Shown here: positions 27,396-47,723 of the stretch, in pieces
Layout: each line of letters starts with the position of its first letter
How positions within the stretch are numbered: position 1 is the stretch's first letter
From: Bacteroidota bacterium
GTDB lineage: Bacteria > Bacteroidota > Bacteroidia > JAFLBG01
Reading direction: 5' to 3'
NCBI GenBank assembly: GCA_017303975.1
Contig: JAFLBG010000005.1
Span: 39,353 to 103,352, forward strand
Length of the DNA stretch: 64,000 nt
Notes under the pieces: generated by a model
Told to the model about the DNA's origin: nothing
Seen by the model: the letters and a program-made list of their open reading frames with translations, nothing else
Databases searched by the model: none
Position numbers and translations under genes: made by a program

Positions 27396-27500
27396 ATCAC
27401 CCCTCACAAAAAGGATCAATAGGATACTATTCTTTTTACTATTTATAGAATTCCTAATACGCATTTATTTTACCATCTACTAACTACTTATTACCAATTA

Positions 27501-30500
27501 CTATCTTACCAATGTTAGATTGCCTTTCTCTGAAATTTCAGTTTCATCGAACAACTCCGCCTCTACAAGCCAAATATAAACTCCCGCGGGAACGTCTTTG
27601 CCTCTAAATGTACCGTCCCATCCTATACCGGAATCTTTTGTTTCAAATACTTTTTCGCCCCAACGATCGTACACAACAAACTTTAACTCTCTAATTCCCT
27701 TGCCTCGCACATAAAACACATCATTCAATCCATCTCCGTTCGGAGAAAATATATCAGGAATAAAAATAGAGGTAGGCTCCAATATGCAAATATCAACAGA
27801 AGATTCATCAGTACAGCCACCTTCATTGTATATTAATAGTGTAGCAGAGTAATTGCCTGGATCTTGAAGTGTAATTTGAGGATTAACCCCTTTAACAAAT
27901 GGAATTGTATCTCCATTACTAAAAATCCAAAAACCTGTTTGTGCATTCAAACTCAAATCAAGCATTGTTAAACTCCTTTGCTCGTATGGAATACAGGCGT
28001 ATTTAGGATTCACAGAAAAAAGTGATTTAATTTTAGTGTAGCTCGGAATCTTAATCACGGTATCAATAAAACATCCTGAATTTTTATCTGTTATTTTAAC
28101 TGTATATATATTTCCTGCTAATCCTGTAATAGAAGCGGTAGTTTTTGCAGGATTTGTTGACCATGAGTAAGCATAATTACTTCCGGCTCCAACGACAGTA
28201 ACTGCAGCTGTTCCAGACAATCCATAACACAAGGTATCTGTGGTAGTTGCAGTTTGAGAAAATGTAGGATAAACAAGAATTGTTATAGAATCTGTTTTTT
28301 CGTCCGAACAATTATCGTTGGTATTTACTATATACGTGGTAGTGATGCTCGGAAATACTTGATGTGTATTAATTGCAGGCAGTCCGTTATTCCATGCATA
28401 TGTAATATTTGCAAACGGAACTCCGGTGGTAGCAGCTAAGGAAATAATTGCATTATCTCCAATGCACAACGAATCGTTTGTAGCAGTTAATGTTGTTGTG
28501 ATTGCGGGGTACACGGTAACTTGTATGGTATCAGAAGTCGAGCAACTTGCACCTCCGGAACCTACATAATAATAGACAATCTGATGCGCTCCATTCCCAG
28601 CAATGGAAGGGTTAAAGGTATTTCCTACAATACCTGGACCGCTAAGCACACCGCCTGTTGGGTTTACAGATAAATTAAATGCACTATCATTAAAACAATA
28701 AGTAGTGTTTAATCCATTTATTTGTGCTGCTGTAAATTGATACACAGTAACATCTACAGATGCTCCGCATCCGTTAACACGCGTAGTGTAATAAACTGTA
28801 GAAGTAACCGACCCAGTAATTGCCGGATTAAACAAGCCGGAGTCGGCATTCACAATTCCATATCCATACCATTTAATTCCATTTCCTATAACTTGTAGGT
28901 CGATGGGAAATGTTGGCATGATGGAACATACAGAAGTATCTGCAAAAGACAATGTGCCGGGATAAACAACAATGCGCAAGGTATCTGTACAATTATTTGC
29001 AGTATAGAGTAATGTGTGTAATCCTGGTCCGGCTAAGGAGGGTTTAAAATAAAACTTTCTGTCATACACTGGCGGATAGCTTATTAACGCAGGCCCTGTC
29101 CATAGCCCTCCACCGGGAGTTCTGTAGGCATTAAGAAAAACAGAATCCATATCAGTGGAACAATAAAAAAGCGTATCAACTGACACCTCAGTACTACGTG
29201 TGTAAATCCGAAGCGTATCAATACATCCATTTGGAGCGGTATATTGAAACCACTCTTCTGAATTATTGGGTGGAACAGAGGGATCATAAAACCCCCAATT
29301 GGTTTGCAAGCCGGAAGGGCCAACAAAAGTTTGAAAAACTGTTGCCCATGTGCCTCCGGGAGGGTCAGGAATTCTCAACGTATCGGCCAACGTACCTTGA
29401 CACACTACAAAATTTCCTCCAACATCAGACGGTTTTAAATACAGTTTTATCGTATCTGTACATCCATTAATTGAGTAAACAAAATTTTGATTTCCGGGAT
29501 TCATGAATTGCGGCTGAATTATACCATTTATCAAATCGGAGAAAGCCCAATTGTTGTTAAGCCACGTACCACCCGGTGGGCTGAAATTTAATTGATAATG
29601 TCTTATTGATTCACAAATAGTATCTCTGCTGCTATTTATGTTTAGCGAACCAACTGTTACAACTTTACTTTCGGTACATCCATTTGGGGATGTGTAAACA
29701 ACCGTATATGAGCCAATCGTAGAGGGGTTAAACAATCCGCCACCTGTTACAAATGGCGTGCCTGACCATGCGCCACCCGGAGGAGTACCTCCGGAAAGCA
29801 TAAATGAGGGAGCTCCCGGACATGAAGCTTGAGCAAGCCCAGCATCAACTGCATTAACCGTAATTCGCAAACTATCTTTACACTGTCCACCAATAGTATA
29901 ATAAATAGTATGTAAGCCACCTCCGGCAGAATCGGGATTAAATGTGCCGGGCTTGGTAATTAGCATTCCAGCGCCACTCCAACTGCCGCCCGGTGGTGTT
30001 GCTAAAACCGTAAATGCTTTAACCGATTGACAAATAGTAGTGTCTTGTCCAGGGAAGGTAATGGTAGGCGAAAGAATAGAAACTAAAATTGTTTTTGTTT
30101 GAATTGGTCCACCAACAGCAGGCTGCACAGAAACAGTATATATAGTTGATGCGGTAGGACAAATAGATTGTACAGCGCCATTCGGCAAACCATGACTCCA
30201 ATAATAATTGTATGCTAAACAACCCGTTGGCGCTACTGATGCGGTTACCTGTGTACAGGTATTTGCGCAAACAGAAAAGCTAGGAAGAGCTGTCGCTGTA
30301 ATTACGAACGGGCAGTCGTTTACAAGTGAGGTATCTCTCAAAATAAATGTCCACAAACTATCGCAGTTATCAAGCATACTGTAATTTACTCTTACCACAT
30401 ACTCACAGTTAATTGTAAGTGGCGCACTTAGTGTAACTCGTACACTTTGAGTACTATCATTTACACAAATTAAACCGGCTACAGCTGTGGTAAGAGGGTT

Positions 30501-31061
30501 TAATGTGTTATTAATACTAAACACTGAAAAGTCATTTATTGTTAACGAATCGCAATGAATATTTCTACTGAATAACAAATCGACTGTGTTGGTGCTACAA
30601 GCAGGTTGCGGAGATACAGAGAATGTAGGAGGCACAGGTGGAGCAACAACGGACGTCCACTGTGCTGCAAAACCAAACTTGTTTAATGCAAAATCGGACA
30701 CAAAGACCAACACCATACATCCCGAGGTTGCGGTTACTGCACCTGGAGAAACCTGTCCTGTATATCCGCCTATCAATGAAGTTCCATCATATACGTACAA
30801 TGAATCTGACCCGGCCTCTAAATCAAAAAACGAAAAATTAAGAGTTACACTAGAATTGGAGCAAATACGAAAAATACTATGTTCATTTGCACTATAAATC
30901 CCAGAGGGGCCACCAGAATCATAAACCTTACCCTTACATTCAGTTATGGTAGTATCTCCATTCAGAATCATATTGAATGATGGCACTTGTGCTTTTAACA
31001 CAATTGCAGAAAATGCAAGTAGCGCAACTAAAAATATTTTTCTTACAACAGTAGCTTGCAT
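27501..31061 (-). CDS. large secreted adhesin-like protein with gliding-motility-associated C-terminal domain (type-B T9SS CTD)
   Basis: signal peptide; Cys-rich Ig-like repeats; C-terminus PDIFSPNGDGLNDVFYVRG...YDRWGEKVFE...GWDG...AGVYIW matches the CHU_C / type-B CTD consensus. Confidence 0.8.
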   Translation of the reverse strand: MQATVVRKIFLVALLAFSAIVLKAQVPSFNMILNGDTTITECKGKVYDSGGPSGIYSANEHSIFRICSNSSVTLNFSFFDLEAGSDSLYVYDGTSLIGGYTGQVSPGAVTATSGCMVLVFVSDFALNKFGFAAQWTSVVAPPVPPTFSVSPQPACSTNTVDLLFSRNIHCDSLTINDFSVFSINNTLNPLTTAVAGLICVNDSTQSVRVTLSAPLTINCEYVVRVNYSMLDNCDSLWTFILRDTSLVNDCPFVITATALPSFSVCANTCTQVTASVAPTGCLAYNYYWSHGLPNGAVQSICPTASTIYTVSVQPAVGGPIQTKTILVSILSPTITFPGQDTTICQSVKAFTVLATPPGGSWSGAGMLITKPGTFNPDSAGGGLHTIYYTIGGQCKDSLRITVNAVDAGLAQASCPGAPSFMLSGGTPPGGAWSGTPFVTGGGLFNPSTIGSYTVVYTSPNGCTESKVVTVGSLNINSSRDTICESIRHYQLNFSPPGGTWLNNNWAFSDLINGIIQPQFMNPGNQNFVYSINGCTDTIKLYLKPSDVGGNFVVCQGTLADTLRIPDPPGGTWATVFQTFVGPSGLQTNWGFYDPSVPPNNSEEWFQYTAPNGCIDTLRIYTRSTEVSVDTLFYCSTDMDSVFLNAYRTPGGGLWTGPALISYPPVYDRKFYFKPSLAGPGLHTLLYTANNCTDTLRIVVYPGTLSFADTSVCSIMPTFPIDLQVIGNGIKWYGYGIVNADSGLFNPAITGSVTSTVYYTTRVNGCGASVDVTVYQFTAAQINGLNTTYCFNDSAFNLSVNPTGGVLSGPGIVGNTFNPSIAGNGAHQIVYYYVGSGGASCSTSDTIQVTVYPAITTTLTATNDSLCIGDNAIISLAATTGVPFANITYAWNNGLPAINTHQVFPSITTTYIVNTNDNCSDEKTDSITILVYPTFSQTATTTDTLCYGLSGTAAVTVVGAGSNYAYSWSTNPAKTTASITGLAGNIYTVKITDKNSGCFIDTVIKIPSYTKIKSLFSVNPKYACIPYEQRSLTMLDLSLNAQTGFWIFSNGDTIPFVKGVNPQITLQDPGNYSATLLIYNEGGCTDESSVDICILEPTSIFIPDIFSPNGDGLNDVFYVRGKGIRELKFVVYDRWGEKVFETKDSGIGWDGTFRGKDVPAGVYIWLVEAELFDETEISEKGNLTLVR

Positions 31062-31075
31062 TAAACATGGATTAT

Positions 31076-31519
31076 TTATAGGCTATCATGAATAGCGATA
31101 GAGGAAGTAACAATTTCATTACTCCAATTCCCGGCTCTATCTTTTATTTTAATGGATAGGGTAGCATTCTCTTGCGTTGCATTGCCTAAGCGAAACATAT
31201 TTTTCAACTTGATTCGAATTTTGCCTTGTGTTTGCAACTCTTCATTATTAGGTGTTATTGGTTTTAGGTGATATCCATCTGCATTTAGTAAGCGACTGTC
31301 TTTTACATGAACCGATTTTTCATCGGCCGACTCATCTCCTAAATCGCCATTGTTATCTTTATAGGATAGTGTAACAATTACACTATCCCTAAACTCCATA
31401 ACACTTGTAGGCTCTACGCTTTCCAATTCAATAGTAGGTTCCAAAGCCAACTCCTTATCTTTCTTTTTGCAAGAAATAATACACAAAAACAATACTGCTA
31501 TAAAAAAAATCTTTTGCAT
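31076..31519 (-). CDS. lipoprotein, unknown function (147 aa)
   Basis: signal peptide with lipobox (IISCKKK); 14-nt gap to the downstream adhesin gene. Confidence 0.5.
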   Translation of the reverse strand: MQKIFFIAVLFLCIISCKKKDKELALEPTIELESVEPTSVMEFRDSVIVTLSYKDNNGDLGDESADEKSVHVKDSRLLNADGYHLKPITPNNEELQTQGKIRIKLKNMFRLGNATQENATLSIKIKDRAGNWSNEIVTSSIAIHDSL

Positions 31520-31521
31520 AT

Positions 31522-32526
31522 CTATTGAATTTTTAATGTAAAGTACTCGAATACATTTTTAGCGACACCTATATTAGGTGTTTCAGTAACGACAGGTTGG
31601 TCGTTATCATCCAAATACAATCTAACATACAACACCGTTCCCGAGGAATAAGTAGCTGTATTGATTGTAATCTTCCTGGTGTAGCTAACGCTAGTATTTA
31701 CATCCAATAGCTTAGGTCCCGATATAGGGCTTGTAACAACAGTAAGATTCTGTGCGGCTGTAGTATCTAATTTAAAAACAGAATTAGCAAATTTAATGGT
31801 ATTGTTTGAAATGGCCGCAGCACTAGTGCTATCGTCTTCAACCGCAAACCACAAATCAACCGAGCCTTGCGGAACCAAAATGGAACCCCTCTTATTTGGG
31901 TTATCAAATCTAGGATATGCGCTACTTGTATTACCTACAGGGAATGCCATAAAGCCTACCGTTTGTGGTTGTTTGTTGCCAAGAGTTGGGGAATTATTAA
32001 ACATGTCTTTTGCGCCTGCGTTTATCCAATCTTTTATGTTTTGTATGTAGGTGTCTGCATTGTTTGTCCAGTCAGTACTATTAGGATTGTTAGACAGTAA
32101 AAATGGCATCCTTCCTTGCGTACCTAGCAGAGCTTGTGTTAAACGAACATACAACATAGAAGAATCTGAGTTACCCGGCAACACACGGTATCTGTAAACT
32201 TGTGGGAGTGGTTGCATAATAGTGCTATCAAAACCATGATTGAATGTTGGCGCGTACAACAACGTGTTATAAGAGCTATAAATGCTTCGGAAATCGGGCA
32301 TAAAGGTTCCATCATGGCATTGAACATTTCCGCAAGTTGGTCGAAATATTTTTTCGTACAGATAGGCAAAATTATTTCCGGCCGGATTATTTAAACCTGG
32401 AGATGGCCCCGGATCTTGCAATGCGGGATCGTCATACGGGTTGTCAAACTCCGGATCTTTTTTGCACGAATTAAATGCAATAGCCAAACACAAGACTAAA
32501 ACAATAAGAACTAAATATTTATTCAT
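31522..32526 (-). CDS. lipoprotein, unknown function (334 aa)
   Basis: lipobox (AFNSCKK); contains CGNVQCH (CxxxxCH, not a canonical heme site); 2-nt gap to the neighbouring genes. Confidence 0.5.
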   Translation of the reverse strand: MNKYLVLIVLVLCLAIAFNSCKKDPEFDNPYDDPALQDPGPSPGLNNPAGNNFAYLYEKIFRPTCGNVQCHDGTFMPDFRSIYSSYNTLLYAPTFNHGFDSTIMQPLPQVYRYRVLPGNSDSSMLYVRLTQALLGTQGRMPFLLSNNPNSTDWTNNADTYIQNIKDWINAGAKDMFNNSPTLGNKQPQTVGFMAFPVGNTSSAYPRFDNPNKRGSILVPQGSVDLWFAVEDDSTSAAAISNNTIKFANSVFKLDTTAAQNLTVVTSPISGPKLLDVNTSVSYTRKITINTATYSSGTVLYVRLYLDDNDQPVVTETPNIGVAKNVFEYFTLKIQ

Positions 32527-32527
32527 G

Positions 32528-34060
32528 CTATGTTAGTTTTTGAGTGCTTAATAATGATACCGGTGTATTGTATAAAAAACTATTTTGCTGATGCTCTTGT
32601 TGCAAATCTGTTAAAAAGCCCATTGCATGCGCAATGGTAGGCACAATATCGGCAGTTTGATTATTATTGGAAGTGCTATAATCAACCATGTGTCCTAAAG
32701 AAGGACCTTGTGTCCAAGCGGTACTATTTTGTGGACCTAAAATCATAGCAAACACATCTTGTGTGTTTAAATCAGAATGGTCGTAGCCCAGCAAATTATT
32801 AATATCCTTAATTGCGTTTGGTTGCAAATTTCTTCCGCATTCAGGTACAATTATCATGATGGTATTGTCTTGAAAGCCTGGTGTACTTTGTATATATTTC
32901 CACAAATGCGCTACACTATGGTCTGCCACATGCAAATTTTGCAAATACGAAGGGTAATTTTGGTGCGCACCATCCACCGCATGCATATTTACTACCGTAA
33001 GTTTCGGTTTAAATTTATCCATCACTTCAATAGCGTATCCAACTGCGGTTGTATCAACAGATTGATAACTACCTCCAATTATATTTCCTTGCGGATCTCT
33101 AACAGTTGCAGAACCATTGTGTATAAGAGGGAATCTAATATTATTATATGAAGCACCAAACATATTTTGCATAAACTGTTTTATATCGTGCTTCTCTTGC
33201 TCCGTGTTTCCAATATCTGTATACGTAACTCCAACTTGCTCGAAAGTATTGTCTAAAAAGTTTTTAAGCCCATACAAATTGGCATATTCATCCGGATGAT
33301 AAATCTTAGCATCTTTTAAATATTTTTCTCCTAAAGGAGTTGTCAACGATTTTTTATTTCCAAAAATAACATCAGGCACTAAAAAATTAGCACCGTACTT
33401 TGCACCCCAATTAGGATGCTGGCTGTAAGACAAGAGTGGAATAGAGTTGCCTATTCCGTATCCAACAAACCAGGTGTCGGTAGCCTTTAAACCTCTGTAC
33501 TTACGAGCATATTCAAATATGGTAGGATACAGCGGCCGCTGCTTCAATCCTTGAGAAAGTAAGGTATTTCCTTGCAACAAAACATTTAGGCCAGTGTAAT
33601 GTCCGGGAGAAGAGCTTTTGATTTTTTTATAAAATATGCCTTGTGTTTGCAAGGTATTTCCTTGCTGAAAAATGGGGTCAATATGCGAATCTCCGGAACC
33701 GGATGGACCATAAAATATTTTACCGGCCGCATTATAGTCACTATTGTTTGTAGAAACAGTTTTATTGTAAACAGGAGATTGCCCTTCCAACAAGTTATAC
33801 ATCACATTTCCTTTGATATCTAATTTTGGCAAATCCCCGGAAGGTCCTGTATAACTAGAATACTGGCTTCCCTTTAAATACAACTGCTGAATAGAATCTT
33901 GGTGTCTTATGCCACCCGCCATCATTACTAAAACAACATGATCTACTAGAGCTGTTCCACCTGTGCTTGCAAACAACCTACCCGATGGAAGTATGTAAGG
34001 AGCAACAAAGGCACCGGCTGCAGCCAATCCTGTTTTTTTTATAAATTCTTTTCTGTTCAT
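32528..34060 (-). CDS. DUF1501-like secreted protein (alkaline-phosphatase/sulfatase superfamily) with a Tat-like leader
   Basis: MNRKEFIKKTGLAAAGAFVAP Tat-like leader (RK rather than RR); VLVMMAGGIRHQDS and PECGRN...GYDHSD regions resemble the DUF1501 conserved blocks as I remember them. Confidence 0.5.
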   Translation of the reverse strand: MNRKEFIKKTGLAAAGAFVAPYILPSGRLFASTGGTALVDHVVLVMMAGGIRHQDSIQQLYLKGSQYSSYTGPSGDLPKLDIKGNVMYNLLEGQSPVYNKTVSTNNSDYNAAGKIFYGPSGSGDSHIDPIFQQGNTLQTQGIFYKKIKSSSPGHYTGLNVLLQGNTLLSQGLKQRPLYPTIFEYARKYRGLKATDTWFVGYGIGNSIPLLSYSQHPNWGAKYGANFLVPDVIFGNKKSLTTPLGEKYLKDAKIYHPDEYANLYGLKNFLDNTFEQVGVTYTDIGNTEQEKHDIKQFMQNMFGASYNNIRFPLIHNGSATVRDPQGNIIGGSYQSVDTTAVGYAIEVMDKFKPKLTVVNMHAVDGAHQNYPSYLQNLHVADHSVAHLWKYIQSTPGFQDNTIMIIVPECGRNLQPNAIKDINNLLGYDHSDLNTQDVFAMILGPQNSTAWTQGPSLGHMVDYSTSNNNQTADIVPTIAHAMGFLTDLQQEHQQNSFLYNTPVSLLSTQKLT

Positions 34061-34071
34061 GTTTGCTCTTT

Positions 34072-34596
34072 TTAGTAGTACAAATACTCGTTAGATAAAA
34101 CGAATGAGAAATAAACTATCTCAGGCGAAATTTTTGTAGAGTCTAAGTTGCCTCCGGAATCTTTCCCCCATGTTTCGATATAGTTTTTTACATATGTTTT
34201 TTCTGCTTCGGTAGGATATCGTATATAAAAACGCTTGTAGGTGTCGTTCACAAATTTATCTACATCGGCCATCATCTCTACATGGGTTGGCTTTAATACT
34301 TTTTTGCTTACATCGTTCAACATGTTATTAATTACCAATTCTCGCACCAACGATTTATCCCCCACAGCTTCTATTGTCTGACTAATTTCAAAAATTTGAT
34401 TGGCACTAAGCGCCTTTTGAAAAAGGTTGGCATGCAGTATAGCCACAAACTGCTCGTTGGTTTTTAGTTTTGTTTTACCAGATGTGCTAGGGTTTAATGT
34501 AATGGGATTTACATCATACGTAGGCTCTAATTCTTTTTTGCAACCTACCACAAAAAGAAACAGACAAAGGGTTGATGTAATTAATATTTTTTTCAT
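34072..34596 (-). CDS. lipoprotein, unknown function (174 aa)
   Basis: lipobox (FVVGCKK); 11-nt gap to the downstream gene. Confidence 0.5.
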   Translation of the reverse strand: MKKILITSTLCLFLFVVGCKKELEPTYDVNPITLNPSTSGKTKLKTNEQFVAILHANLFQKALSANQIFEISQTIEAVGDKSLVRELVINNMLNDVSKKVLKPTHVEMMADVDKFVNDTYKRFYIRYPTEAEKTYVKNYIETWGKDSGGNLDSTKISPEIVYFSFVLSNEYLYY

Positions 34597-34641
34597 TTTA
34601 AAGTTTGTTAATTGAAACTATACACTTTCAATTTAAATACG

Positions 34642-34711
34642 CCACAAAGTCTTCGACTGGCTCAGGCTGACTTTCGCTCGGTCATATTGAGCCTGTCGAA
34701 ATAGTGCGTTG
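34642..34711 (-). repeat. copy A of a ~70-nt palindromic repeat element with 13-bp imperfect terminal inverted repeats TTCGACAGGCTCA...TGAGCCTGTCGAA; intragenic-operon location
   Basis: the reverse complement aligns at about 85% identity with 49967..50037, including the flanking CA(A/G)CGCACT and CGAAGACTT blocks. Confidence 0.7.
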
Positions 34712-34767
34712 AGTTATTAAAAAAATCATTTATTTATCTATTTATTTTTTTTATACAATCATTCATT

Positions 34768-35691
34768 TTAAAATCCTGCATATTCATTCGTAATCAACAC
34801 TTTTCGTTGCAATTTTTGTAAATCATGGTCGGCATATAATTCTTGTATATAGGTGTATATCTCGCTGGAAGATGGGCTTCTGGATAAAAAGCTCTTGTAT
34901 GTCCACCAAATTAATCCTTCGTAAAATTCGTGCGAGGTTGTTGCTATTTTTATAAAATCTCCCTTGTTCTGCCCAGACATTCCAAAAAGTGTTGCAGGCT
35001 TGTTGTATTCCACCATATCATAGGCTTTGTTGTATTCATTAATATCTGGAAAGCGGTAATACAAATCATTAAATACAGCATTAATAAAATTGAAAGAATT
35101 CATGTTGATCTGATCGTACACTTTATTGTACACCATTGCATAAAAAACATCATTTATATCAATCGAATCGTTTCGGTATTTGGATTGAGAATCGTGTATA
35201 GCCCATAGTTTTCGAACTTCAATCCTATTTATTTCTGCACCAAGAGAATCTCCATTAGTCGAATCTACAACAACATTATATTGATAATGCCCATAAATCC
35301 AATTCCCTATTATGTCTTGATCGCTTATAGACTCTAACGTTCTAGCTTTTGCCATTTCATAAAGCTTGTTATAGTAAGCATATTTGTAAGAGGAATCTCC
35401 GGGCAAATACGTTTCATCTGTTTGCAACCTAAGTACAATTGCCTCTCGAGCTGCCATGCTTACATCAGAGGCACGTAAAATTTCAACATCTCTTTGCAGT
35501 TCGGTTTGCAGTGCCTCCCTTCCTATTAAATCTATGTATAGTTTATTCACATAGTTTTCGAGTTTTATGGTGGAAAGCCCTTTGTATAGAGGTGCGTTAT
35601 TGTCTAAAATAAGTTCGGCATCTTTTTTACAAGAATGGATTAGGGTTAAAAAAGATAAAAGAAGAATTGAATAGTTAATTCTATTTCTCAT
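34768..35691 (-). CDS. lipoprotein, unknown function (307 aa)
   Basis: lipobox (LIHSCKK); first gene of the co-directional block. Confidence 0.5.
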   Translation of the reverse strand: MRNRINYSILLLSFLTLIHSCKKDAELILDNNAPLYKGLSTIKLENYVNKLYIDLIGREALQTELQRDVEILRASDVSMAAREAIVLRLQTDETYLPGDSSYKYAYYNKLYEMAKARTLESISDQDIIGNWIYGHYQYNVVVDSTNGDSLGAEINRIEVRKLWAIHDSQSKYRNDSIDINDVFYAMVYNKVYDQINMNSFNFINAVFNDLYYRFPDINEYNKAYDMVEYNKPATLFGMSGQNKGDFIKIATTSHEFYEGLIWWTYKSFLSRSPSSSEIYTYIQELYADHDLQKLQRKVLITNEYAGF

Positions 35692-35795
35692 TGTAAATAA
35701 GCAGGTTTTGACTAAATATAGTCTAAAAAATACTAAGAATCAATTTAAAAAAATGTTATTCTTAGCATTTGAAAGCTAAAAAGGGGGGAACAAAA

Positions 35796-36440
35796 CTACC
35801 TTACAACTAGTTTTTTATTGTAAAGCTTGTTATTACTACTTGCGGTAATTGTGTATAAACCGGGAGCTAAATTTTGGTTAGTTTCTATGTTTGTTATTAT
35901 TTGTTCCTCTTCTAAAATAAATGCTTTGGAGTAATGCTCTTTGCCCAACACATCGTGCACTACTATTAACACCTCTTCTCCGGACTGTCCGGTAAATGCT
36001 ACATTGATATTACCATTGGTTGCCGGATTAGGGTAAACCATCAGTAGAGAACTTTCCAACTTTAAACGTTGAAACTCTACCGCTACCAATTCGCTATAAT
36101 CATATGCTCCATCAAAATCGGTTTGTTTTAGGCGGTAGTAAGATGTGCCTTGAAAAGGCTTTGTATCAATTGTTGCATAATTTAGTATTTGAGAGCTATT
36201 GCCAGCTCCATCAACAGTTGCAACAAACTCATAATTAACTCCGTCTTGTGTTTTTTCAATTGTAAAGTAATCGTTATTCGTTTCGCTGGCAGTTGTCCAT
36301 TTTAATTGGGCGTATTCGTTATTTATATTTTCGGCTGTAAAACTTAATAGTTCTATCGGTAGGCCCACCATGCAGGTAGTAGCCAATTCAGAGGTATTGT
36401 TGTCTGATACTGTGCGCTGTGGCGGTAACACTTTCTCCAT
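35796..36440 (-). CDS. C-terminal segment (FN3-like domain plus type-A T9SS CTD) of a giant parallel beta-helix cargo; probably part of one gene spanning 35796..42065
   Basis: ends ...LMVYPNPATNGNINVAF...NKLYNKKLVVR (type-A CTD); the ORF opens only 3 codons upstream of its ATG and overlaps the 3' end of ORF 36388..39273 in another frame. Confidence 0.6.
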   Translation of the reverse strand: MEKVLPPQRTVSDNNTSELATTCMVGLPIELLSFTAENINNEYAQLKWTTASETNNDYFTIEKTQDGVNYEFVATVDGAGNSSQILNYATIDTKPFQGTSYYRLKQTDFDGAYDYSELVAVEFQRLKLESSLLMVYPNPATNGNINVAFTGQSGEEVLIVVHDVLGKEHYSKAFILEEEQIITNIETNQNLAPGLYTITASSNNKLYNKKLVVR

Positions 36441-39423
36441 TATTAATAGTTACACCACTTAAGCTCCACGCCCCACTACCATTAGCTAATACTGACCCAA
36501 GGTATGTCATTGCATCTTGGCAATTGCCTGTATTGTTTTTAAATACTTCTACCGTATCGTTGGCTGTGGCTGTACCACTGACACTTGTTCCATTAAAGGC
36601 TGTTACGGATGGTTTTGCTTTGCTTGCATTGGCACTAGATGCTAGGGTTACACCACTGGCATTAGAGTAAATTAAATTTCTCGAAATTAAATTTCCTGTA
36701 CATGATGCCCCGGTTAAATAAACTCCAGCAGTACCATTGTGTGCAATTACATTACCATACGGATTTTGCCCGGTTGCCCCACTATTACCACCAATAGCAT
36801 TACCAATATTCCCATTGCTGATATATATTCCATAAGCCTGAACGGTTCCTGTAGGGGCACTTCCAGTTGAAGTACATCCAATATAATTTCCTTGTATTTT
36901 GGCACCAGTGGTGGTGGTTGAAAATAAGCGTATGCCATTTTGGGTATTTCCAGAAATTATATTTTTCTCGGCTGCACTCACCCCTCCAATCTGTAGGCCT
37001 AAAGTATTTGAAACTACCCTAATCCCAATATTTTGGTAGTAGTTAGAGGTGCCGGAAGTACCATCTGCAGCCAAACCTATTATATTACCCTTAATAACTA
37101 CATTATTATTATTGTTGTTAAAAAATATGATTCCGGACGATAATGCTCCATAGTTTGCAGAAATTACATTTCCATCACCAGCAGAGGTGCCTCCAATTTG
37201 GGTGCCATTTGCGCCACTTAACAGATGAATTCCTGCATCTTGCGAAGAAGAAGCAATGCCGGAAGCCCCGTCAGTTCCCACTCCAATGTAATTTCCTTTT
37301 ATAATGGTACCGGTCATATTGGTATTTATATAGATGCCTGCTGTTTCATTCCCGCCAATAATATTTCTTTTACCCGAACCATTGCCTCCAATAGTTTGGT
37401 TATTGCTATTAACATAAATTCCGTTTAGTTGGGTATTCGAAGAAACATAACTCATACCATTTGCTTGTGTACCTATATGATTTCCAAAAACATTATCTAC
37501 TCCACTCGATTCTAAAATAATACCACTATTTATATTTCCGCTTATAACATTTCCTTCGCCAGCTGTTGTACCACCAATGGTATTTCCGTTAGAAGTGCCT
37601 GATAAATATACCCCTATGTCGTTCGAAGCTTTTGTGCTTCCATCACTACCTAAACCTATATAGTTCCCCTTAATATTGTTTCCACTAGAACTTCCGGATA
37701 TGCTTATTCCCCAGGCGTTATATCCAAATGTTAAAACATATTCGTGCCCTGAAATTATATTTCTACCGGAAGAAGTTCCGTTTCCAATGAGATTTCCATA
37801 CGAATTACTTATGTCTATCCCAACACCCTGACCACTACTATTTGCAGTCGAAACTTCTGAAACACCATCCGGATTTAACCCAATAATATTACCTAGTATT
37901 GTGTGGGATGTAACAGAGCTTAGTAAAATTCCTGTTCCATTTGAGTCATTTAATTGATCACCATTGTCAGAAATAGTATTTCCTTCGCCACTGGTGGTTC
38001 CCCCTATTGTGTTGGAATGTGCAGAACTATGGCACGATATTCCAGTGCGTTGTCCAATGGTATAAGATATGCCCGATGCGTCTTCATCTGAACCTATTCC
38101 AATTTTATTGCCTTTTATGCTATTGCCTGAAGTGCTTGCTCCTGTTAGCAAAATACCCGCTGTATTATTTAATGAAATAATATTACGAGCTCCGGTTGTG
38201 CCACTCCCTATTTGATTATTGGTGCTCCCATTAGCCAAGTATATACCATAGTCCTGATCGCTATTTACCTCCCCAAGTCCACCTCTATTTAAACCAATTA
38301 CATTACCTAAAATAGTATGAGAAGATACTCCGTTTAAATAAATACCTGAATTTGTATTTCCTGTAACTGTATTTTCCTCGGCTGAAGCCGTACCTCCAAT
38401 GGTGTTGCTATTGGATGAAGCTCCTCCCGAAATATAAATGCCATAATCTTGTGATGATGTAGCTATAGCAGATGTTCCATTACTTGCTAATCCTATATAA
38501 TTTCCTTTAATACTAGCGCCTGTTGTATAGTTAGAAATATAAATTCCCGCCTCTGTATTTGCAGATATAATATTGCGAGCTCCGGATACATTTCCCCCTA
38601 TTACGTTGTTTGACATATATTCTCCATCTCCAAAATCGTAGAAATAGATACCATATTTTTGGGTAGAAGATGTAACAACAGTAGAGCCATCTGCTTGCGG
38701 GCCTATGGTATTTCCAATTATGGTATTACTACTTACCGATTCGGGATTATAATCTAACGCACTTCCTAAATAAATGCCATACCCTCCTGCAGCACCATCG
38801 TTATTGCCTGATATAATATTTCCTTCTCCGGCTGCAGTTCCGCCAATGGTATTATACATACAGGCATCATATAAATACGCGCCATAATTTTGGGTGCTGC
38901 TTGTCACAAAAGAAGTGCCATTGCTTTGCAATCCTATGTAGTTTCCTTTTACTACGTTTCCGGTTGCTCCCGGATAAGTAATAGTGACACCCGAATATTC
39001 ATTCCCGGAAATAATATTTCGTTGAGCGTTTGCACCACCAACAGTATTATTAGTACCAGATATATCCACACCCGTTTGTTGAGCATGGGAGGTTACATAA
39101 GTACTACCATCTTTTTGTAGCCCTATTACATTTCCAATAACAGAATTGTTTGTTCCCCCAACTCCAATACCGGAAGTGTTCCCCGAAATTACATTTGCCT
39201 CTCCTGCAGCGGTGCCTCCTATTGTGTTGTACGAGCCAGCTAGACCAACCCCTCCTTGAGCAGATGATGTCATAAAGCTAGTGCCATTGCTTTGCAGTCC
39301 AATAAAATTTCCTTTGACAATATTTCCGGTAGTACCGGAGCCACTGAAATTTACCCCTGCACTTTTATTTCCTGAAATAACATTTCCACCTGCGGTTTGG
39401 GTATTACCAATAACATTGTTTAA
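36388..39423 (-). CDS. middle segment of the giant parallel beta-helix repeat protein (PbH1-type N.IGGT..GEGN.ISGN repeats)
   Basis: the reading frame stays open upstream of the annotated ATG (39273) through 39423 and keeps the same repeat motif (..NNVIGNTQTAGGNVISGN..GNFIGLQSNGTSF-MTSS..); the annotated 147-nt intergenic gap is therefore coding. Confidence 0.6.
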   Translation of the reverse strand, partial: LNNVIGNTQTAGGNVISGNKSAGVNFSGSGTTGNIVKGNFIGLQSNGTSFMTSSAQGGVGLAGSYNTIGGTAAGEANVISGNTSGIGVGGTNNSVIGNVIGLQKDGSTYVTSHAQQTGVDISGTNNTVGGANAQRNIISGNEYSGVTITYPGATGNVVKGNYIGLQSNGTSFVTSSTQNYGAYLYDACMYNTIGGTAAGEGNIISGNNDGAAGGYGIYLGSALDYNPESVSSNTIIGNTIGPQADGSTVVTSSTQKYGIYFYDFGDGEYMSNNVIGGNVSGARNIISANTEAGIYISNYTTGASIKGNYIGLASNGTSAIATSSQDYGIYISGGASSNSNTIGGTASAEENTVTGNTNSGIYLNGVSSHTILGNVIGLNRGGLGEVNSDQDYGIYLANGSTNNQIGSGTTGARNIISLNNTAGILLTGASTSGNSIKGNKIGIGSDEDASGISYTIGQRTGISCHSSAHSNTIGGTTSGEGNTISDNGDQLNDSNGTGILLSSVTSHTILGNIIGLNPDGVSEVSTANSSGQGVGIDISNSYGNLIGNGTSSGRNIISGHEYVLTFGYNAWGISISGSSSGNNIKGNYIGLGSDGSTKASNDIGVYLSGTSNGNTIGGTTAGEGNVISGNINSGIILESSGVDNVFGNHIGTQANGMSYVSSNTQLNGIYVNSNNQTIGGNGSGKRNIIGGNETAGIYINTNMTGTIIKGNYIGVGTDGASGIASSSQDAGIHLLSGANGTQIGGTSAGDGNVISANYGALSSGIIFFNNNNNNVVIKGNIIGLAADGTSGTSNYYQNIGIRVVSNTLGLQIGGVSAAEKNIISGNTQNGIRLFSTTTTGAKIQGNYIGCTSTGSAPTGTVQAYGIYISNGNIGNAIGGNSGATGQNPYGNVIAHNGTAGVYLTGASCTGNLISRNLIYSNASGVTLASSANASKAKPSVTAFNGTSVSGTATANDTVEVFKNNTGNCQDAMTYLGSVLANGSGAWSLSGVTINNGESVTATAHSIRQQYL

Positions 39424-42065
39424 GGAGCTGTGGCTATATAAACTCCAAAGGCTTGAATAGAAGCTACGGCCGAAGTTACAATAGTAGAGCCATCTTTTTG
39501 CGGACCAATAAAATTGCCTACTACCGTATTGCTACTTGCTGCATTTAAATAAACTCCCCAGCCTGTGGGTGTACCGGCACCGTCTCCGTTTCCACTTATT
39601 ACATTTCCTTCTCCTGCTGCCGTGCCGCCTATGGTGTTAGCGGATGCAGAGGTGGTTAAATATATTCCGTAGTCTTGTGAAGAAGATGTAACTACTGTAG
39701 TACCATTGCTTTGCAAACCAATGTAGTTGCCTTTTATGTTGTTACCGCTACAGCCAGCCCCTGTCAGGTATGCGCCATAAGTGGCATTTCCTGATAGAAT
39801 GTTTCTGCCCGAACTAATTGTATTTCCAATTGTGTTATTGGTAGAGTTGTTGGCTAAATAAACTCCATAATGTTGTCCATTAGAACTTATTAGAGTTGAG
39901 CCATCTTTTTGCAAACCAATAATATTTCCTGTTACCGTATTGGAACTAACACCATTAATGTAAACCCCATAACCAATGGAGGTGGAATTATTTTGATTAC
40001 CGGATATTACATTGGCGTCTGCGGTGTTATTTCCTCCAATAGTATTAAATGCTGCACTATTGGTTATATACACCCCATACTCTTGATAACCGCTTTTGGT
40101 GGCTCCATCGGAGCCCACACCAATGTAATTACCTCGTACAATATTGCCCGATGTGCCAGAGCCATCTAGATATAAGCCATATTGACTTGCCATAGAAATG
40201 ATGTTGCCCTCTCCGGCAGCAGAACCTCCAATGTAGTTTCCAAAACTTGCATTGTAGAGCGCAAGATTGTACTGAGAAATAGAATTCGCGCTATTGGTTA
40301 TACCATCTGCTTGTAAGCCTAAAACATTTCCTATTATGGTGTTAGAGGTTGCTGCACTCAAATGTATGCCTGTTCCGGCTGTATATCCAACATTCCGATT
40401 GGAAGAAATAACATTTTTATCTGAAGTAGAAGTTCCTCCTATTCGATTCGATTTTGCTCCGGATGCCAAATAAATACCAAACGCTTGTGTGCCGTTACTC
40501 ACCCTACCAGTGCCTGCAGAATTTACTCCTATATAATTGCCAATAATTGTATTAGAACTGGCTCCGGCCCCGGTAAGATAGATGCCGTAACCATTTGAGA
40601 CATTATCGCAATTACCCGAAATAATGTTTCTGGCTATTGTTGAGGAATTACCGCCAATTGTATTTCCATAACAGCCATTGCAATATACTCCATGGCTTTG
40701 TGTGGTAGAGGTTACAGCTGTAGAACCCCCAACTTGCGGACCAATAGTATTTCCTAACAACGTATTGGAGGTAACTCCATTTAAATACACACCATATCCG
40801 GTTGATGTACCATCAGAATTGCCACTAATAACATTTCCTTCTCCTGTAGCAGTGCCACCAATAGTATTTCGTTGTGCAGAGCCTGTTAAATAAACTCCAT
40901 TATCTTGTGTATTGCTAGTTATAAAAGTGGCGCCATCGCTTGCAATACCTATGTAGTTTCCTTTTATTTGATTAGCAGAAGAAGATGAGCCTGTTAAATA
41001 AACTCCGGAGTTGGTATTAGCTGAAATAATATTTCTGAAACTACCAGATGTACCACCTATTATTAAAGAGTAAGAGTTGGATAAATAAATGCCATAGGTT
41101 TGTGGGTTTGAAGCTCCCGTTATTACAGAGCTTCCGGTAGACGTAGTACCAATTCGATTGCCGTATATGTATTGAGGGGTAGTTATACTAGAACAGAAAA
41201 TCCCACTACTACTATTCCCAGAAATTAAGTTGCCATCGTTGATGCCCGTTCCCCCAATGGTATTACTTGTTCCAACACCAGTAAGTAAAATGCCGGTGGC
41301 GTATTTAGAGGCTCGGGTTGTTCCATCTTTTTGCAGCCCAATAATGTTTCCTTTTATTATATTTCCTGTAGAGGAGGCTCCGGACATGATAATTTGCCCG
41401 AACGACCCAAAACCAGAGATATTACAACCACTTATTAAATTAACACCCGATGCAGTTCCATCGCCTATAAGATTATTGGCAGAGTTTACAATGTAAATTC
41501 CAATATCGGTATTATAGGTAGTGGTAGAGCCATCGGTGTCTATACCTATGTAACAAGCGGTTATAGTATGCGAAGAACTGGAGTTTAAATGTATTCCGTA
41601 GTCGCCAAAACTACCTGCCGTTCCAAAATTTCTTAGTACTAACCCCTTTATCAAACTACCGTCTGACCCTGCATTTAACACTAAGCCATCAAAAGCTCCT
41701 GTGCCTCCTCCATCAATACAAACCATATTTTGGTAAGATAGCGGATTAGCCACAGTTGTGGCAAAGGGAACAACGGTATTAGTTACAAAACCTGTATTGG
41801 AAGTACCGTCAATAAAAACTTGAGCAGCCATAGCGGGCAAAGCGGCTGTTAATGTTATTACAGCAGCGCCTACACTAAAATTAATAGTTCCACCTCCTCC
41901 TCCATTTTCATTGTCGTTTATTGCCTCTCTTAGCGAACAGTGTATTCCATCGCAAGTTCCATCATCCACATCGTTTGTAGAATTTACTGTATAGGTTTGA
42001 CCTATAAGCAAATTACTTATAACAAAAAATAAAAATACCAAATATTCTATTCTCTTGACAATCAT
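39420..42065 (-). CDS. N-terminal segment (signal peptide plus parallel beta-helix repeats) of the giant T9SS cargo
   Basis: signal peptide; more than 30 tandem ~23-aa beta-helix repeats; stop at 39420..39422 falls mid-repeat (..QAFGVYIATAP*). Confidence 0.6.
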   Translation of the reverse strand: MIVKRIEYLVFLFFVISNLLIGQTYTVNSTNDVDDGTCDGIHCSLREAINDNENGGGGGTINFSVGAAVITLTAALPAMAAQVFIDGTSNTGFVTNTVVPFATTVANPLSYQNMVCIDGGGTGAFDGLVLNAGSDGSLIKGLVLRNFGTAGSFGDYGIHLNSSSSHTITACYIGIDTDGSTTTYNTDIGIYIVNSANNLIGDGTASGVNLISGCNISGFGSFGQIIMSGASSTGNIIKGNIIGLQKDGTTRASKYATGILLTGVGTSNTIGGTGINDGNLISGNSSSGIFCSSITTPQYIYGNRIGTTSTGSSVITGASNPQTYGIYLSNSYSLIIGGTSGSFRNIISANTNSGVYLTGSSSSANQIKGNYIGIASDGATFITSNTQDNGVYLTGSAQRNTIGGTATGEGNVISGNSDGTSTGYGVYLNGVTSNTLLGNTIGPQVGGSTAVTSTTQSHGVYCNGCYGNTIGGNSSTIARNIISGNCDNVSNGYGIYLTGAGASSNTIIGNYIGVNSAGTGRVSNGTQAFGIYLASGAKSNRIGGTSTSDKNVISSNRNVGYTAGTGIHLSAATSNTIIGNVLGLQADGITNSANSISQYNLALYNASFGNYIGGSAAGEGNIISMASQYGLYLDGSGTSGNIVRGNYIGVGSDGATKSGYQEYGVYITNSAAFNTIGGNNTADANVISGNQNNSTSIGYGVYINGVSSNTVTGNIIGLQKDGSTLISSNGQHYGVYLANNSTNNTIGNTISSGRNILSGNATYGAYLTGAGCSGNNIKGNYIGLQSNGTTVVTSSSQDYGIYLTTSASANTIGGTAAGEGNVISGNGDGAGTPTGWGVYLNAASSNTVVGNFIGPQKDGSTIVTSAVASIQAFGVYIATAP

Positions 42066-42262
42066 CCGTTAATAGCAATTATTGAAAGACTTACTACGTA
42101 CAATATACTAAAATAATAGTCGCAATTTTATGGTTTCTACTTTTTTTGACTACTGCTAATTCCGATATATTGTACGAAAAAACCCACAAATGGTTCCAAA
42201 TTAACGACTAATAAACTCAAGACAATACACTCAAATGGAAAAATCCAAAAGAAAAATAGCCA

Positions 42263-43888
42263 TTATTTACGGAGCAAAGCCTCTATGGCCTTACCAATAG
42301 CCTTGTCGGAAGATTGTTGCGATTTATAATAACCTTCGGCCCCCCAAATATTTCGGGCAACAAGCGATTTTATGTTTTGTTTTAACAATGCCTTTGATAC
42401 TAAAAATTCCCCTTCGTTCTTTTTTATCTTCATACTCTCCCCTTGCTTCACAAGCCTTTCGAGCATATCATCACCTACCTCAAAGTCTGAAACAAACTGT
42501 TCTATTGAATGGAATTTGGTCTTTAATTGCAATCGGTTTTTATCTGCCCACTCAAATGCAAATTGATTAACCACTCCTTTATAGTAGAGTTCTGTTAAAT
42601 ACGTTGTTCTCCCAACAGTATCCATTGGTACAAACAAATCAGGCATAATTCCACCACCACCATATACAATCTTGCCTGCAGGTGTTTTAAATTTTAATGA
42701 ATCGATAAATTTAATACTATCAGCACTTTGCAACTCACCATTCTCGAAGCGCTCGTATTCTTCTTTCAAATACGCTTCAATGCCCTTCTTATACGACTTT
42801 TGTATGCATCTGCCGGTGGGGGTATAATATCTGGCTGTAGTAAGCCGAATAGCCGAGCTGTCTGGAAAATCAGTTTGCTCTTGCACCAACCCTTTACCAA
42901 AAGAACGCCTCCCAACCACCAACCCTCTGTCGTTGTCTTGAATAGCTCCTGCAACAATCTCGCTGGCCGAAGCAGATCCCTCGTCAATCAAAACAACCAA
43001 TTCGTTTTTTTCAAACTCCCCGGAAGAAGTGGCTTTGTATTCTCTTCTACCATGCGCCCTACCTTCGGTATAAACAATCATTTTATTGTCGGATAAAAAT
43101 TCATCCGACAAATCTATCGCAGCGTTGAGCAATCCACCTGGATTTCCACGAATATCCAAAACCATTTTTTTCATCCCTTGTTTTCGTAATTTTTCGAACG
43201 CTTCTAGATATTCATCAAATGTGGTTGCGGCAAAACGACTAATCTTAATATAGCCAATTTCTTTTGTAATCATGTAGGCCACATCCACACTGTAAATTGG
43301 GATTTTGTTGCGAACAATTGAAAAGTCAAGTAATTTTTTAATCCCCCTGCGCTCTACAGAAATGTTTACTGTTGTACCTTTCGGGCCGCGCAATTTTTTA
43401 AACACATCGTTATTAGTGATTTTTACTCCAGCCACACTTTTACCTTCTACTTTTACAATTTTGTCTCCGGGCTGAATACCGAGTGCCTCCGAAGGTCCAC
43501 CCACAATGGGCGATATAACACGAATTGTGTCGTTTACAATATTAAATTCAATTCCAATCCCATCGAAGTTGCCTTGTAATGGTTCGTTTGCCGCTTTAGA
43601 CTCTTCGGCAGTAATATAGGCAGAGTGAGGGTCGAGTTGCTGCATCACTTCTTGCAGAGTATTATCCACCAATTGTTTTCGATTGATAGTATCTACATAC
43701 TGTGTTTGTATGTAATCAAGAATCTGATTTATTTTATCATTACTGCTTTGTTTGGTGGCTATGCGCTGCAATAAGGAGGTATCTGAGGAATAGGTAGCAG
43801 ATATTTTAATGCCAATAAATACACCAATGATTAAAATTATTGCAAATAGTAACGGAAGTAGAATCTGGAATTTTCGGTTATGCTGCAT
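42263..43888 (-). CDS. ctpA: carboxy-terminal processing protease (S41 family, PDZ-containing)
   Basis: N-terminal TM anchor, PDZ (GIQPGDKIVKVEG) and the S41 catalytic region (LIDEGSASASE). Confidence 0.85.
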   Translation of the reverse strand: MQHNRKFQILLPLLFAIILIIGVFIGIKISATYSSDTSLLQRIATKQSSNDKINQILDYIQTQYVDTINRKQLVDNTLQEVMQQLDPHSAYITAEESKAANEPLQGNFDGIGIEFNIVNDTIRVISPIVGGPSEALGIQPGDKIVKVEGKSVAGVKITNNDVFKKLRGPKGTTVNISVERRGIKKLLDFSIVRNKIPIYSVDVAYMITKEIGYIKISRFAATTFDEYLEAFEKLRKQGMKKMVLDIRGNPGGLLNAAIDLSDEFLSDNKMIVYTEGRAHGRREYKATSSGEFEKNELVVLIDEGSASASEIVAGAIQDNDRGLVVGRRSFGKGLVQEQTDFPDSSAIRLTTARYYTPTGRCIQKSYKKGIEAYLKEEYERFENGELQSADSIKFIDSLKFKTPAGKIVYGGGGIMPDLFVPMDTVGRTTYLTELYYKGVVNQFAFEWADKNRLQLKTKFHSIEQFVSDFEVGDDMLERLVKQGESMKIKKNEGEFLVSKALLKQNIKSLVARNIWGAEGYYKSQQSSDKAIGKAIEALLRK

Positions 43889-46049: not shown

Positions 46050-47723
46050 ATGAGATTCAAAACGATTGCCACTACACTTGTTTTTCTTATTTCTATTTTA
46101 AATTTACACTCCCAAGGTAAACAAGGAAACATGTGGCATTTTGGATTTAATGCCGGAGTAAACTTCAACACCATACCGCCTACCCCAATTACCAGTAGTA
46201 TAAGCACTAGCGAAGGTTCGGCATCTGTTGCAAATAGTGTCGGTCAAACATTGTTTTATACCGATGGATTGCAAATTTGGGATAAAAACAATTCGCTAAT
46301 GCCCAATGCAGACGGAAGCTCTTGGAACAAACAATTGTCCGGAGATGGCAGCTCCGCTCAATCTGCTTTAATAACCAACAATCCTTGCGACACCAATAAA
46401 TACTACGTTTTTACAACCGATGGAATTACCTGCAACTTTCTTGGCCCACAAGGACAATGGGATGGGCTATATTACACAGTTGTAAACACCTCGTTAAATG
46501 CAGGCAGTGGAGATATTGACCTTTCGTATTTAAGCACACAACCCGGGTATGTAGCTGGCGACAACAAGATAGCGTTGATTGACAGTGTGCAAGAACGTAT
46601 TACCGCTGCTACACACGCCAATGGAACCGACTACTGGGTTGTTGTGCTCCGCGAAAATGGAGAATTTTATTCTTATTTAGTTGATTGCAATGGTATAAAT
46701 ACAACTCCGGTAATTACAAAAACCTTTGCAAGTCCTTTCACTGCAACACAAGGATTTATTTCAATATCAAAAGATGGAACATGCTTGGTTGTAACCGGCA
46801 TCAATAGTGGCGAAGCCAATATGTACGATTTTGATAACACAACAGGGGTGGTATCGAACAAACGTTTGCTATACAGTGGCAGCGACTGGACTTGGGGTGT
46901 CTGCTTTTCTCCAAATGATTCTATAATTTATATTGCAAGTTGGTTTTCATCTACTATAAGGCGCTATGATAGATTTGCGTCAAATGTAGCTGCATCTGAA
47001 ATACAAGACAATACAGGAATGTTTGGCATTACAGTTATACAGCAAGGGCCGGACGGAAAACTATATATTCCTGACGGTTCCAACTTATCTGTTTACAACA
47101 CACCCAACAATTTTTCCAATCCTGGTTTAGCAAGCGCAGTAATTTCTGCACTTTCAGGAACTTACTATAACTACGGACTTCCGAATGTTTTTTTAAAATA
47201 TTACTCTACTTCGGAAAACAATTTGGTGCAAAGTGATACAAATATATGCCCCGGAGGCTCTGTTCAATTAAGTAGAGCCACCCCATCCAACTGCTATACT
47301 TATAATTGGCAACCTACCACAGGGCTAAGTAATCCTAATATACTAAACCCAATTGCAACCCTAGAGGAAACAACCACTTACAAATTAATTGCAACGTCAT
47401 CTTGCGCTACTATAGAAAAAGAAATAACTATTGAAGTTTGCTTTACAGAAATAAAAATACCCAATGTATTTACTCCAAATGGAGATGGCATTGACGACAA
47501 CTGGACAATAACATCCGCTCCGGGTAACACCGTAAATTGTATTATTTATAACAGATGGGGCGAGATTATTTTTGAAGCAAACGAAGAAAATATAAACTGG
47601 ACTGGCACATCCAAAAATGGCAAAACCGCGAGTGATGGCACGTATTACTACGTGCTAACACACTCCAAACCCAATAATAACGAAGTAGTAGAGTATAAAG
47701 GATTTGTTACTTTATTGAGGTAA
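46050..47723 (+). CDS. secreted protein with gliding-motility-associated C-terminal domain (type-B T9SS CTD)
   Basis: signal peptide; C-terminus PNVFTPNGDGIDDNW...YNRWGEIIFE...NWTG...DGTYYY matches the CHU_C consensus. Confidence 0.75.
   Translation: MRFKTIATTLVFLISILNLHSQGKQGNMWHFGFNAGVNFNTIPPTPITSSISTSEGSASVANSVGQTLFYTDGLQIWDKNNSLMPNADGSSWNKQLSGDGSSAQSALITNNPCDTNKYYVFTTDGITCNFLGPQGQWDGLYYTVVNTSLNAGSGDIDLSYLSTQPGYVAGDNKIALIDSVQERITAATHANGTDYWVVVLRENGEFYSYLVDCNGINTTPVITKTFASPFTATQGFISISKDGTCLVVTGINSGEANMYDFDNTTGVVSNKRLLYSGSDWTWGVCFSPNDSIIYIASWFSSTIRRYDRFASNVAASEIQDNTGMFGITVIQQGPDGKLYIPDGSNLSVYNTPNNFSNPGLASAVISALSGTYYNYGLPNVFLKYYSTSENNLVQSDTNICPGGSVQLSRATPSNCYTYNWQPTTGLSNPNILNPIATLEETTTYKLIATSSCATIEKEITIEVCFTEIKIPNVFTPNGDGIDDNWTITSAPGNTVNCIIYNRWGEIIFEANEENINWTGTSKNGKTASDGTYYYVLTHSKPNNNEVVEYKGFVTLLR

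Follow-up and report, generated by a model that had tools for sequence, protein, structure and literature searches.

The window analysed here is a stretch of 64,000 nt from contig JAFLBG010000005.1 of a Bacteroidota metagenome-assembled genome (MAG; GCA_017303975.1). On its minus strand lie three adjacent open reading frames (ORFs) of 881, 961 and 214 aa, which we call A, B and C in the order in which they would be translated. A, B and C are fragments of one gene, encoding a giant beta-helix cargo protein of the type IX secretion system (T9SS), whose frame is broken at two junctions: junction 1 between A and B, and junction 2 between B and C.

Fragments and domains of the broken gene

The gene and its fragments are arranged as follows:

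35796..42065, minus strand: the whole disrupted gene, which becomes one 2,090-codon ORF with 0 internal stops once one A is added at junction 1 and 2 nt at junction 2.
39420..42065, minus strand: ORF A, 881 aa, the N-terminal fragment (from the ORF list, the frames and the profile matches).
36388..39273, minus strand: ORF B, 961 aa counted from its ATG, the middle fragment, with neither a signal peptide nor a T9SS C-terminal domain (CTD).
36388..39531, minus strand: frame B as far as it is open, 1,047 codons (six-frame check).
35796..36440, minus strand: ORF C, 214 aa, the C-terminal fragment, deposited in GenBank as MBN8702050.1 and without a signal peptide.

The six-frame check puts A and C in the same frame, with B shifted by one. 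The stop codon of ORF A (TAA, 39422..39420) arises from the frameshift at junction 1, and the 147 nt that seem to separate A from B are coding: frame B is open from 39531, and the repeat carries on in it. A and C share a frame because the changes at the two junctions, −1 and −2, sum to −3. Nothing functional follows from this match, since the original frame runs into 85 stops over the B region. Counts of promoter-like and terminator-like signals between the ORFs are at the level of shuffled sequence and are uninformative on whether there are separate transcription units.

Once the frame is restored, the order of the protein is signal peptide, CSLREA domain, about 1,560 aa of beta-helix repeats, Ig-like domain, FN3-like domain and T9SS type A CTD:

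41997..42065, minus strand: predicted Sec signal peptide, MIVKRIEYLVFLFFVISNLLIGQ (hydropathy heuristic).
41916..41993, minus strand: CSLREA N-terminal domain, ORF A residues 25-50 (TIGR04214, 32.8 bits against a cutoff of 25).
36652..41363, minus strand: predicted right-handed beta-helix repeat region, with its register unbroken through junction 1 at both the protein and the DNA level.
36415..36579, minus strand: Ig-like domain, ending at junction 2 (a weak match to Pfam Big_6, 20.5 bits, below the cutoff of 27.6).
36075..36356, minus strand: FN3-like beta-sandwich, ORF C residues 29-122 (predicted local distance difference test score, pLDDT, about 90).
35802..36038, minus strand: T9SS type A CTD (TIGR04183, 38.9 bits against a cutoff of 23; PF18962, 34.3 bits against 27).

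Of the three ORFs, A alone begins with a hydrophobic stretch: the highest Kyte-Doolittle hydropathy over 12 aa, used here as a heuristic, is 2.74 for A, 0.81 for B and 1.75 for C. The CSLREA domain, with the motif HCSLREAIN, is likewise confined to A, and the type A CTD is found on C only. The repeats are common to A and B, which are 43% identical over 718 aa (E 5e-111). NosD (PF05048) matches ORF A at 40644..40910 with 50.8 bits against a cutoff of 23.6, and Pfam gives no match on ORF B at E ≤ 0.01. The coil motif N[IVLT][IVL][STGA][GSADLM][NH] occurs 27 times in the joined protein and 0.46 times in shuffles. The dominant period is about 66 aa, corresponding to three coils of roughly 22 aa each. 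At the DNA level, degenerate repeats of 60-85% identity with a period of roughly 200 nt are evenly spaced across 39178..39743. The features that we looked for in the right-handed parallel beta-helix (NosD/PbH1) class were found in the repeat region, which we accordingly predict to be a member of it.

At the other end of the protein, the AlphaFold model of ORF C (pLDDT 82.7) consists of two beta-sandwiches, preceded by a disordered stretch of 24 residues. Foldseek of the two-domain model returns tandem FN3 pairs as the top PDB matches (E 1.8e-7); Pfam found no FN3 in ORF C.

Much of this had been laid out in the original prediction: three minus-strand ORFs of these lengths and positions, a 147-nt annotated gap that is coding in the middle frame and continues the repeat, a full length of about 2,090 aa, a beta-helix repeat shared by the neighbouring ORFs, a signal peptide restricted to the first ORF (here by the heuristic) and a type A CTD restricted to the last. 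All of these recur in our analysis, and the FN3-like domain that it had placed in the last ORF, on which Pfam is silent, is backed by the structure model and the PDB matches.

Relatives and the two junctions

Among the proteins searched, the closest relatives are single ORFs of 1,655-2,793 aa with an N-terminal CSLREA or CSLREA-like module, the beta-helix and the CTD in this order. Three of them, P0002 (2,146 aa, 48% identity at 99% coverage), P0005 (2,294 aa) and P0006 (2,019 aa), carry PF18962. The first of these, P0002, is MBN8702076.1 (locus L002, 2168-8608), which is found on the same 139,855-bp MAG contig as MBN8702050.1; the protein accessions of the window run consecutively, which places P0002 a few genes past the right end of the window. 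MBN8702076.1 is an intact, diverged paralogue in the same genome. Seven homologues, including the paralogue, read straight across junction 2 as single ORFs, and none of them is split. This bears on two points of the original prediction: the comparison with relatives that it called for yields single ORFs, such as the paralogue of 2,146 aa, and the view that one gene rather than three lies here agrees with homologues in which we did not see three genes with a signal peptide and CTD each.

The protein closely resembles two known systems. With the CSLREA right-handed beta-helix proteins (TIGR04214 with NosD/PbH1, PF05048/PF13229) it shares the CSLREA motif, the N.I.GN-type coils and the giant size, and its nearest full-length relatives bear the NCBI name “CSLREA domain-containing”; unlike those proteins, it has two breaks in its frame as deposited. 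With T9SS type A cargo (signal peptide, passenger, Ig/FN3-like spacer, TIGR04183/PF18962 CTD) it shares the order of parts once the frame is restored. Here, however, the CTD is on a separate ORF of 214 aa, and signal peptide and CTD come to lie on one polypeptide only after restoration. The paralogue has the same architecture, uninterrupted, and reads ...GESVTATARTVSDLNTSE... across junction 2, although its gene neighbours differ from those of the broken gene.

Identity to the paralogue is 35% in the N-terminal 235 aa, 44% in the repeats and 84% in the C-terminal 294 aa (77% at the DNA level). As an observation in its own right, this mosaic hints that the Ig/FN3/CTD module is either strongly constrained or has been exchanged. 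The ratio of nonsynonymous to synonymous substitution rates (dN/dS) against the paralogue in the C-terminal module is 0.061 ahead of junction 2 and 0.065 beyond it; dS is saturated. Strong purifying selection has thus acted on the part that is cut off during practically its whole history and, with dN/dS near 0.06 on either side of the junction, any inactivation is very recent.

Both junctions could be compared between two assemblies. The source study (PRJNA704939) sampled a photosynthetic enhanced biological phosphorus removal (EBPR) bioreactor with three Illumina HiSeq 2500 2x150 libraries, and used metaSPAdes 3.9 (a co-assembly and single assemblies), MetaBAT2 and dRep (PMC8103865). The window has a GC content of 36.5%, and the Bacteroidota MAGs close to it in GC are listed at 0.02-0.27% relative abundance (PMC8103865), so the MAG was assembled at low coverage. 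Our second assembly consists of the Logan contigs of run SRR13786856 from the same project, made with a different assembler from metaSPAdes. Contig L001 (9,868 bp) corresponds to 39876..30010 of the window with no mismatch and one gap, and L004 (1,885 bp) and L005 (8,698 bp) are 100% identical to it. The sole difference in the 20,451 bp compared is an A missing from the window at 39431. L001 ends at 39876, beside a sister repeat of the junction 1 sequence, GGAGTTTATTTAGCCAACAAC (39846..39876), and the region 39877..42645, which includes the 5' third of the gene, is present in one assembly only.

The two junctions are placed as follows:

39431, minus strand: junction 1, a 1-nt deletion (GCCA-CAGC in the window, GCCAACAGC in L001).
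36414..36417, minus strand: junction 2, a 2-nt deletion inside GCGC (alignment of homologues and a blastn gap).

At junction 1, GCCAACAGC is expected and the window reads GCCACAGC, the A being missing next to 39431; over a longer stretch, L001 reads ATAGCCAACAGCTCC where the window has ATAGCCA-CAGCTCC. With the A in place, frames A and B merge, and the gene caller gives 1,162 uninterrupted codons on L001, up to the end of the contig. The peptide across the repaired junction, ...FGVYIANSSLNNVIGN... or, over a longer stretch, ...AFGVYIANSSLNNVIGNTQTAGGNVISGN..., fits the sister repeats, for example YGVYLANNSTNNTIGN and YGIYLANGSTNNQIGS. An allele containing the A certainly exists, because random error would not rebuild a perfect in-frame repeat; the MAG allele that lacks it is a wrong consensus call where coverage is thin, or else a minor or derived variant. 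The original prediction had put this junction in a short A/T run at CCTTAAAC, 39420..39423. According to L001, the real site adjoins 39431; it precedes the TAA by nine bases, falls outside the proposed TTAAAC run and has the context AA. Repairing CCTTAAAC to CCTTTAAAC also restores the frame, but yields ...IATAPLNN... and not the observed ...IANSSLNN.... An assembly-graph artefact driven by repeats was also considered and rejected: neither the gene nor the paralogue has near-identical k-mers, only the 60-85% degenerate repeats, and there is no tandem array.

At junction 2, frame B tracks the seven homologues through ...GESVTATA and then diverges, reading HSIRQQYL before its stop, and frame C tracks them from RTVSDNNTSE onward. 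The last homologous codon of frame B is GCG (Ala, 36417..36415) and the first of frame C is CGC (Arg, 36416..36414); within the conserved ATAR motif, these two codons overlap by 2 nt. The arginine at the join is present in 7/7 homologues, within ATAR in six and ATGR in one. The paralogue DNA is GCA CGC ACC here, and blastn against the paralogue gene puts a 2-nt gap at the same point. The event is therefore a 2-nt deletion, GCNCGC to GCGC. L001 carries junction 2 just as the window does, down to the 214-aa ORF C and its overlap with B. Here the original prediction, a 1-nt insertion at about 36405..36425, had the position within range and the type of event wrong: a 1-nt insertion would lose the conserved arginine or give AQR instead of ATAR. 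The context, GCGC, is not a homopolymer run either. The “two compensating 1-nt frameshifts” it had proposed are therefore right in that A and C are in the same frame, but not in their sizes, which are −1 and −2.

An exact look-up found no record for ORF A, ORF B, the 541-aa peptidase or the 557-aa ORF of the window, and the gap in the accessions, MBN8702051-053, would fit B, A and the peptidase. Protein queries spanning the junctions found no near-identical protein across either of them, a weak result in that the search lists only targets within a band around the query length; for the same reason, the absence of the 881-aa and 961-aa products and of P0002 from some of its lists is uninformative. 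The C-terminal 299 aa had no relative in a scan of a genome-contig collection, the source MAG evidently being outside that collection, and a scan of a metagenome-contig collection gave one distant match (L003, 29% identity) and no further copy of the locus.

Explanations of the breaks

The explanation that we favour, and regard as probable though well short of secure, is that one T9SS type A cargo gene of about 2,090 aa was recently inactivated by a real junction 2, and that junction 1 is an error or a minor allele. Junction 2 is most likely a real deletion because it is present in both assemblies. Junction 1 looks like an assembly error or a minor variant because it is absent from an independent assembly of a source read set. 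The two possibilities that the original prediction had set side by side, a pseudogene and a sequencing or assembly error, thus each fit one junction, the first the one seen in both assemblies and the second the one seen in a single assembly.

A T9SS CTD is needed for transport and surface attachment; therefore, function would be lost if the 2-nt deletion is real. In the bioreactor population, the deletion (36415/36416) would separate the passenger from both the FN3-like domain and the CTD. The product would be a passenger of some 1,890 aa (some 1,900 aa if its out-of-frame tail is counted), and of 881 aa from the MAG allele. With its signal peptide, this passenger would presumably still be exported by Sec, but without the CTD it would not be handed to the T9SS, and the 214-aa remainder (FN3-like domain and CTD) would have no signal peptide. 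The gene would then be a very recent pseudogene, the loss of which is perhaps made tolerable by the intact paralogue. Junction 1, seen only in the deposited MAG, would be a low-coverage consensus error or a minor allele that postdates the first inactivation. The data show that this is one gene, where both indels lie and how large they are, that the assemblies disagree at junction 1 and agree at junction 2, and that purifying selection has lasted to the present; we infer that the organism's DNA really carries the junction 2 deletion, that function is lost and that the events took place in this order.

Some points weigh against this explanation. The second assembly spans 4.1 kb of the gene (35796..39876), and 39877..42065 comes from the MAG alone. 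The two assemblies may share one read set, and are independent as assemblers, not as samples. Finally, an intact junction 2 allele could coexist in the population without having been assembled.

A different, and in our view unlikely, explanation is that both deletions are real and segregating: a haplotype with junction 2 only would occur beside a haplotype with both, in the stepwise decay of a redundant gene. The only difference in 20,451 bp does fall in a gene that would already be inactivated, in which further indels would be neutral; the MAGs come from a co-assembly or single assemblies of three time points, so that the dominant allele may differ; and the organism is present in run SRR13786855 too. 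Against this, about 20% of the sequence compared belongs to this gene, so a single discrepancy inside it is not significant, and no other polymorphism was seen between the assemblies. It is similarly doubtful, if conceivable, that such haplotypes capture the stepwise loss of one of two giant paralogues over weeks, possibly under pressure from phages or grazers.

That both frameshifts are artefacts, and that the organism has an intact gene of 2,090 codons, seems improbable to us. The errors would stem from low coverage or from the reads, and it is true that junction 1 fails to reproduce between assemblies, that the candidate MAGs are only 0.02-0.27% abundant and of low coverage, and that open frames throughout and a dN/dS of 0.06 are what would be expected of an intact gene. 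Two different assemblers, however, gave an identical 2-nt deletion, and in about 20.4 kb there is no other discrepancy: the assembly is not error-rich. Nor does the gene have the near-identical DNA repeats that could cause a graph artefact. Illumina reads rarely yield 2-nt deletions outside repeats, and Logan drops k-mers that were seen only once, both of which count against an artefact.

Functional breaks, finally, whether slipped-strand phase variation, as raised in the original prediction for indels in homopolymers, or a programmed frameshift (−2 or +1 at junction 2) that gives the full-length protein, are highly improbable, even though surface and adhesin-like genes are typical phase-variable loci and the frames remain open past the breaks: neither site has a homopolymer or multi-unit tract (the contexts being AA and GCGC, far below known contingency tracts), Tandem Repeats Finder (TRF) found no tandem repeat in 35700..42200, there is no slippery heptamer (X XXY YYZ or of the CUU UGA type) at 36414..36417 and no stimulatory stop at the frame switch, where homology changes frame 8 codons before the frame B stop, the paralogue and all 7 homologues are in frame so that the shift site is not conserved, and the shift at junction 1 is missing from the other assembly. 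Simple-sequence contingency loci likewise have a frameshifting indel in a surface-protein gene, but their tracts are of a length that permits slippage, usually at least 7 units, and here there is no homopolymer or repeat tract.

Gene neighbourhood and implications

The 64-kb window is rich in genes of secreted proteins, several of which have a T9SS CTD. Directly downstream of the broken gene are five ORFs on the same strand (147, 334, 510, 174 and 307 aa; 31076..35691, minus strand), which may form an operon; none has a Pfam family above threshold, and the 307-aa ORF has a sub-threshold DUF4214. An S41 peptidase gene is located on the other flank of the broken gene. A PorP/SprF homologue, MBN8702043.1 (26376..27464), adjoins a 1,186-aa CUB protein with a CHU_C (type B) domain, the two genes together spanning 26376..31061 on the minus strand, the usual pairing of a type B cargo with a PorP-like partner. 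Two further T9SS cargo proteins are a CHU_C protein of 557 aa at 46050..47723 (plus strand) and a type A CTD protein of 458 aa at 55544..56920 (minus strand).

The case is an ordinary one and implies no new mechanism or family. It does illustrate that a frameshift of one base in a MAG built from Illumina reads can vanish in a second assembly of the same community, and split genes in low-coverage MAGs should not be taken for biology without read support. For the annotation of this genome, it means that the three ORFs, of which at least C is deposited as a protein of its own (MBN8702050.1), would be better described as one disrupted CSLREA/beta-helix T9SS cargo gene.

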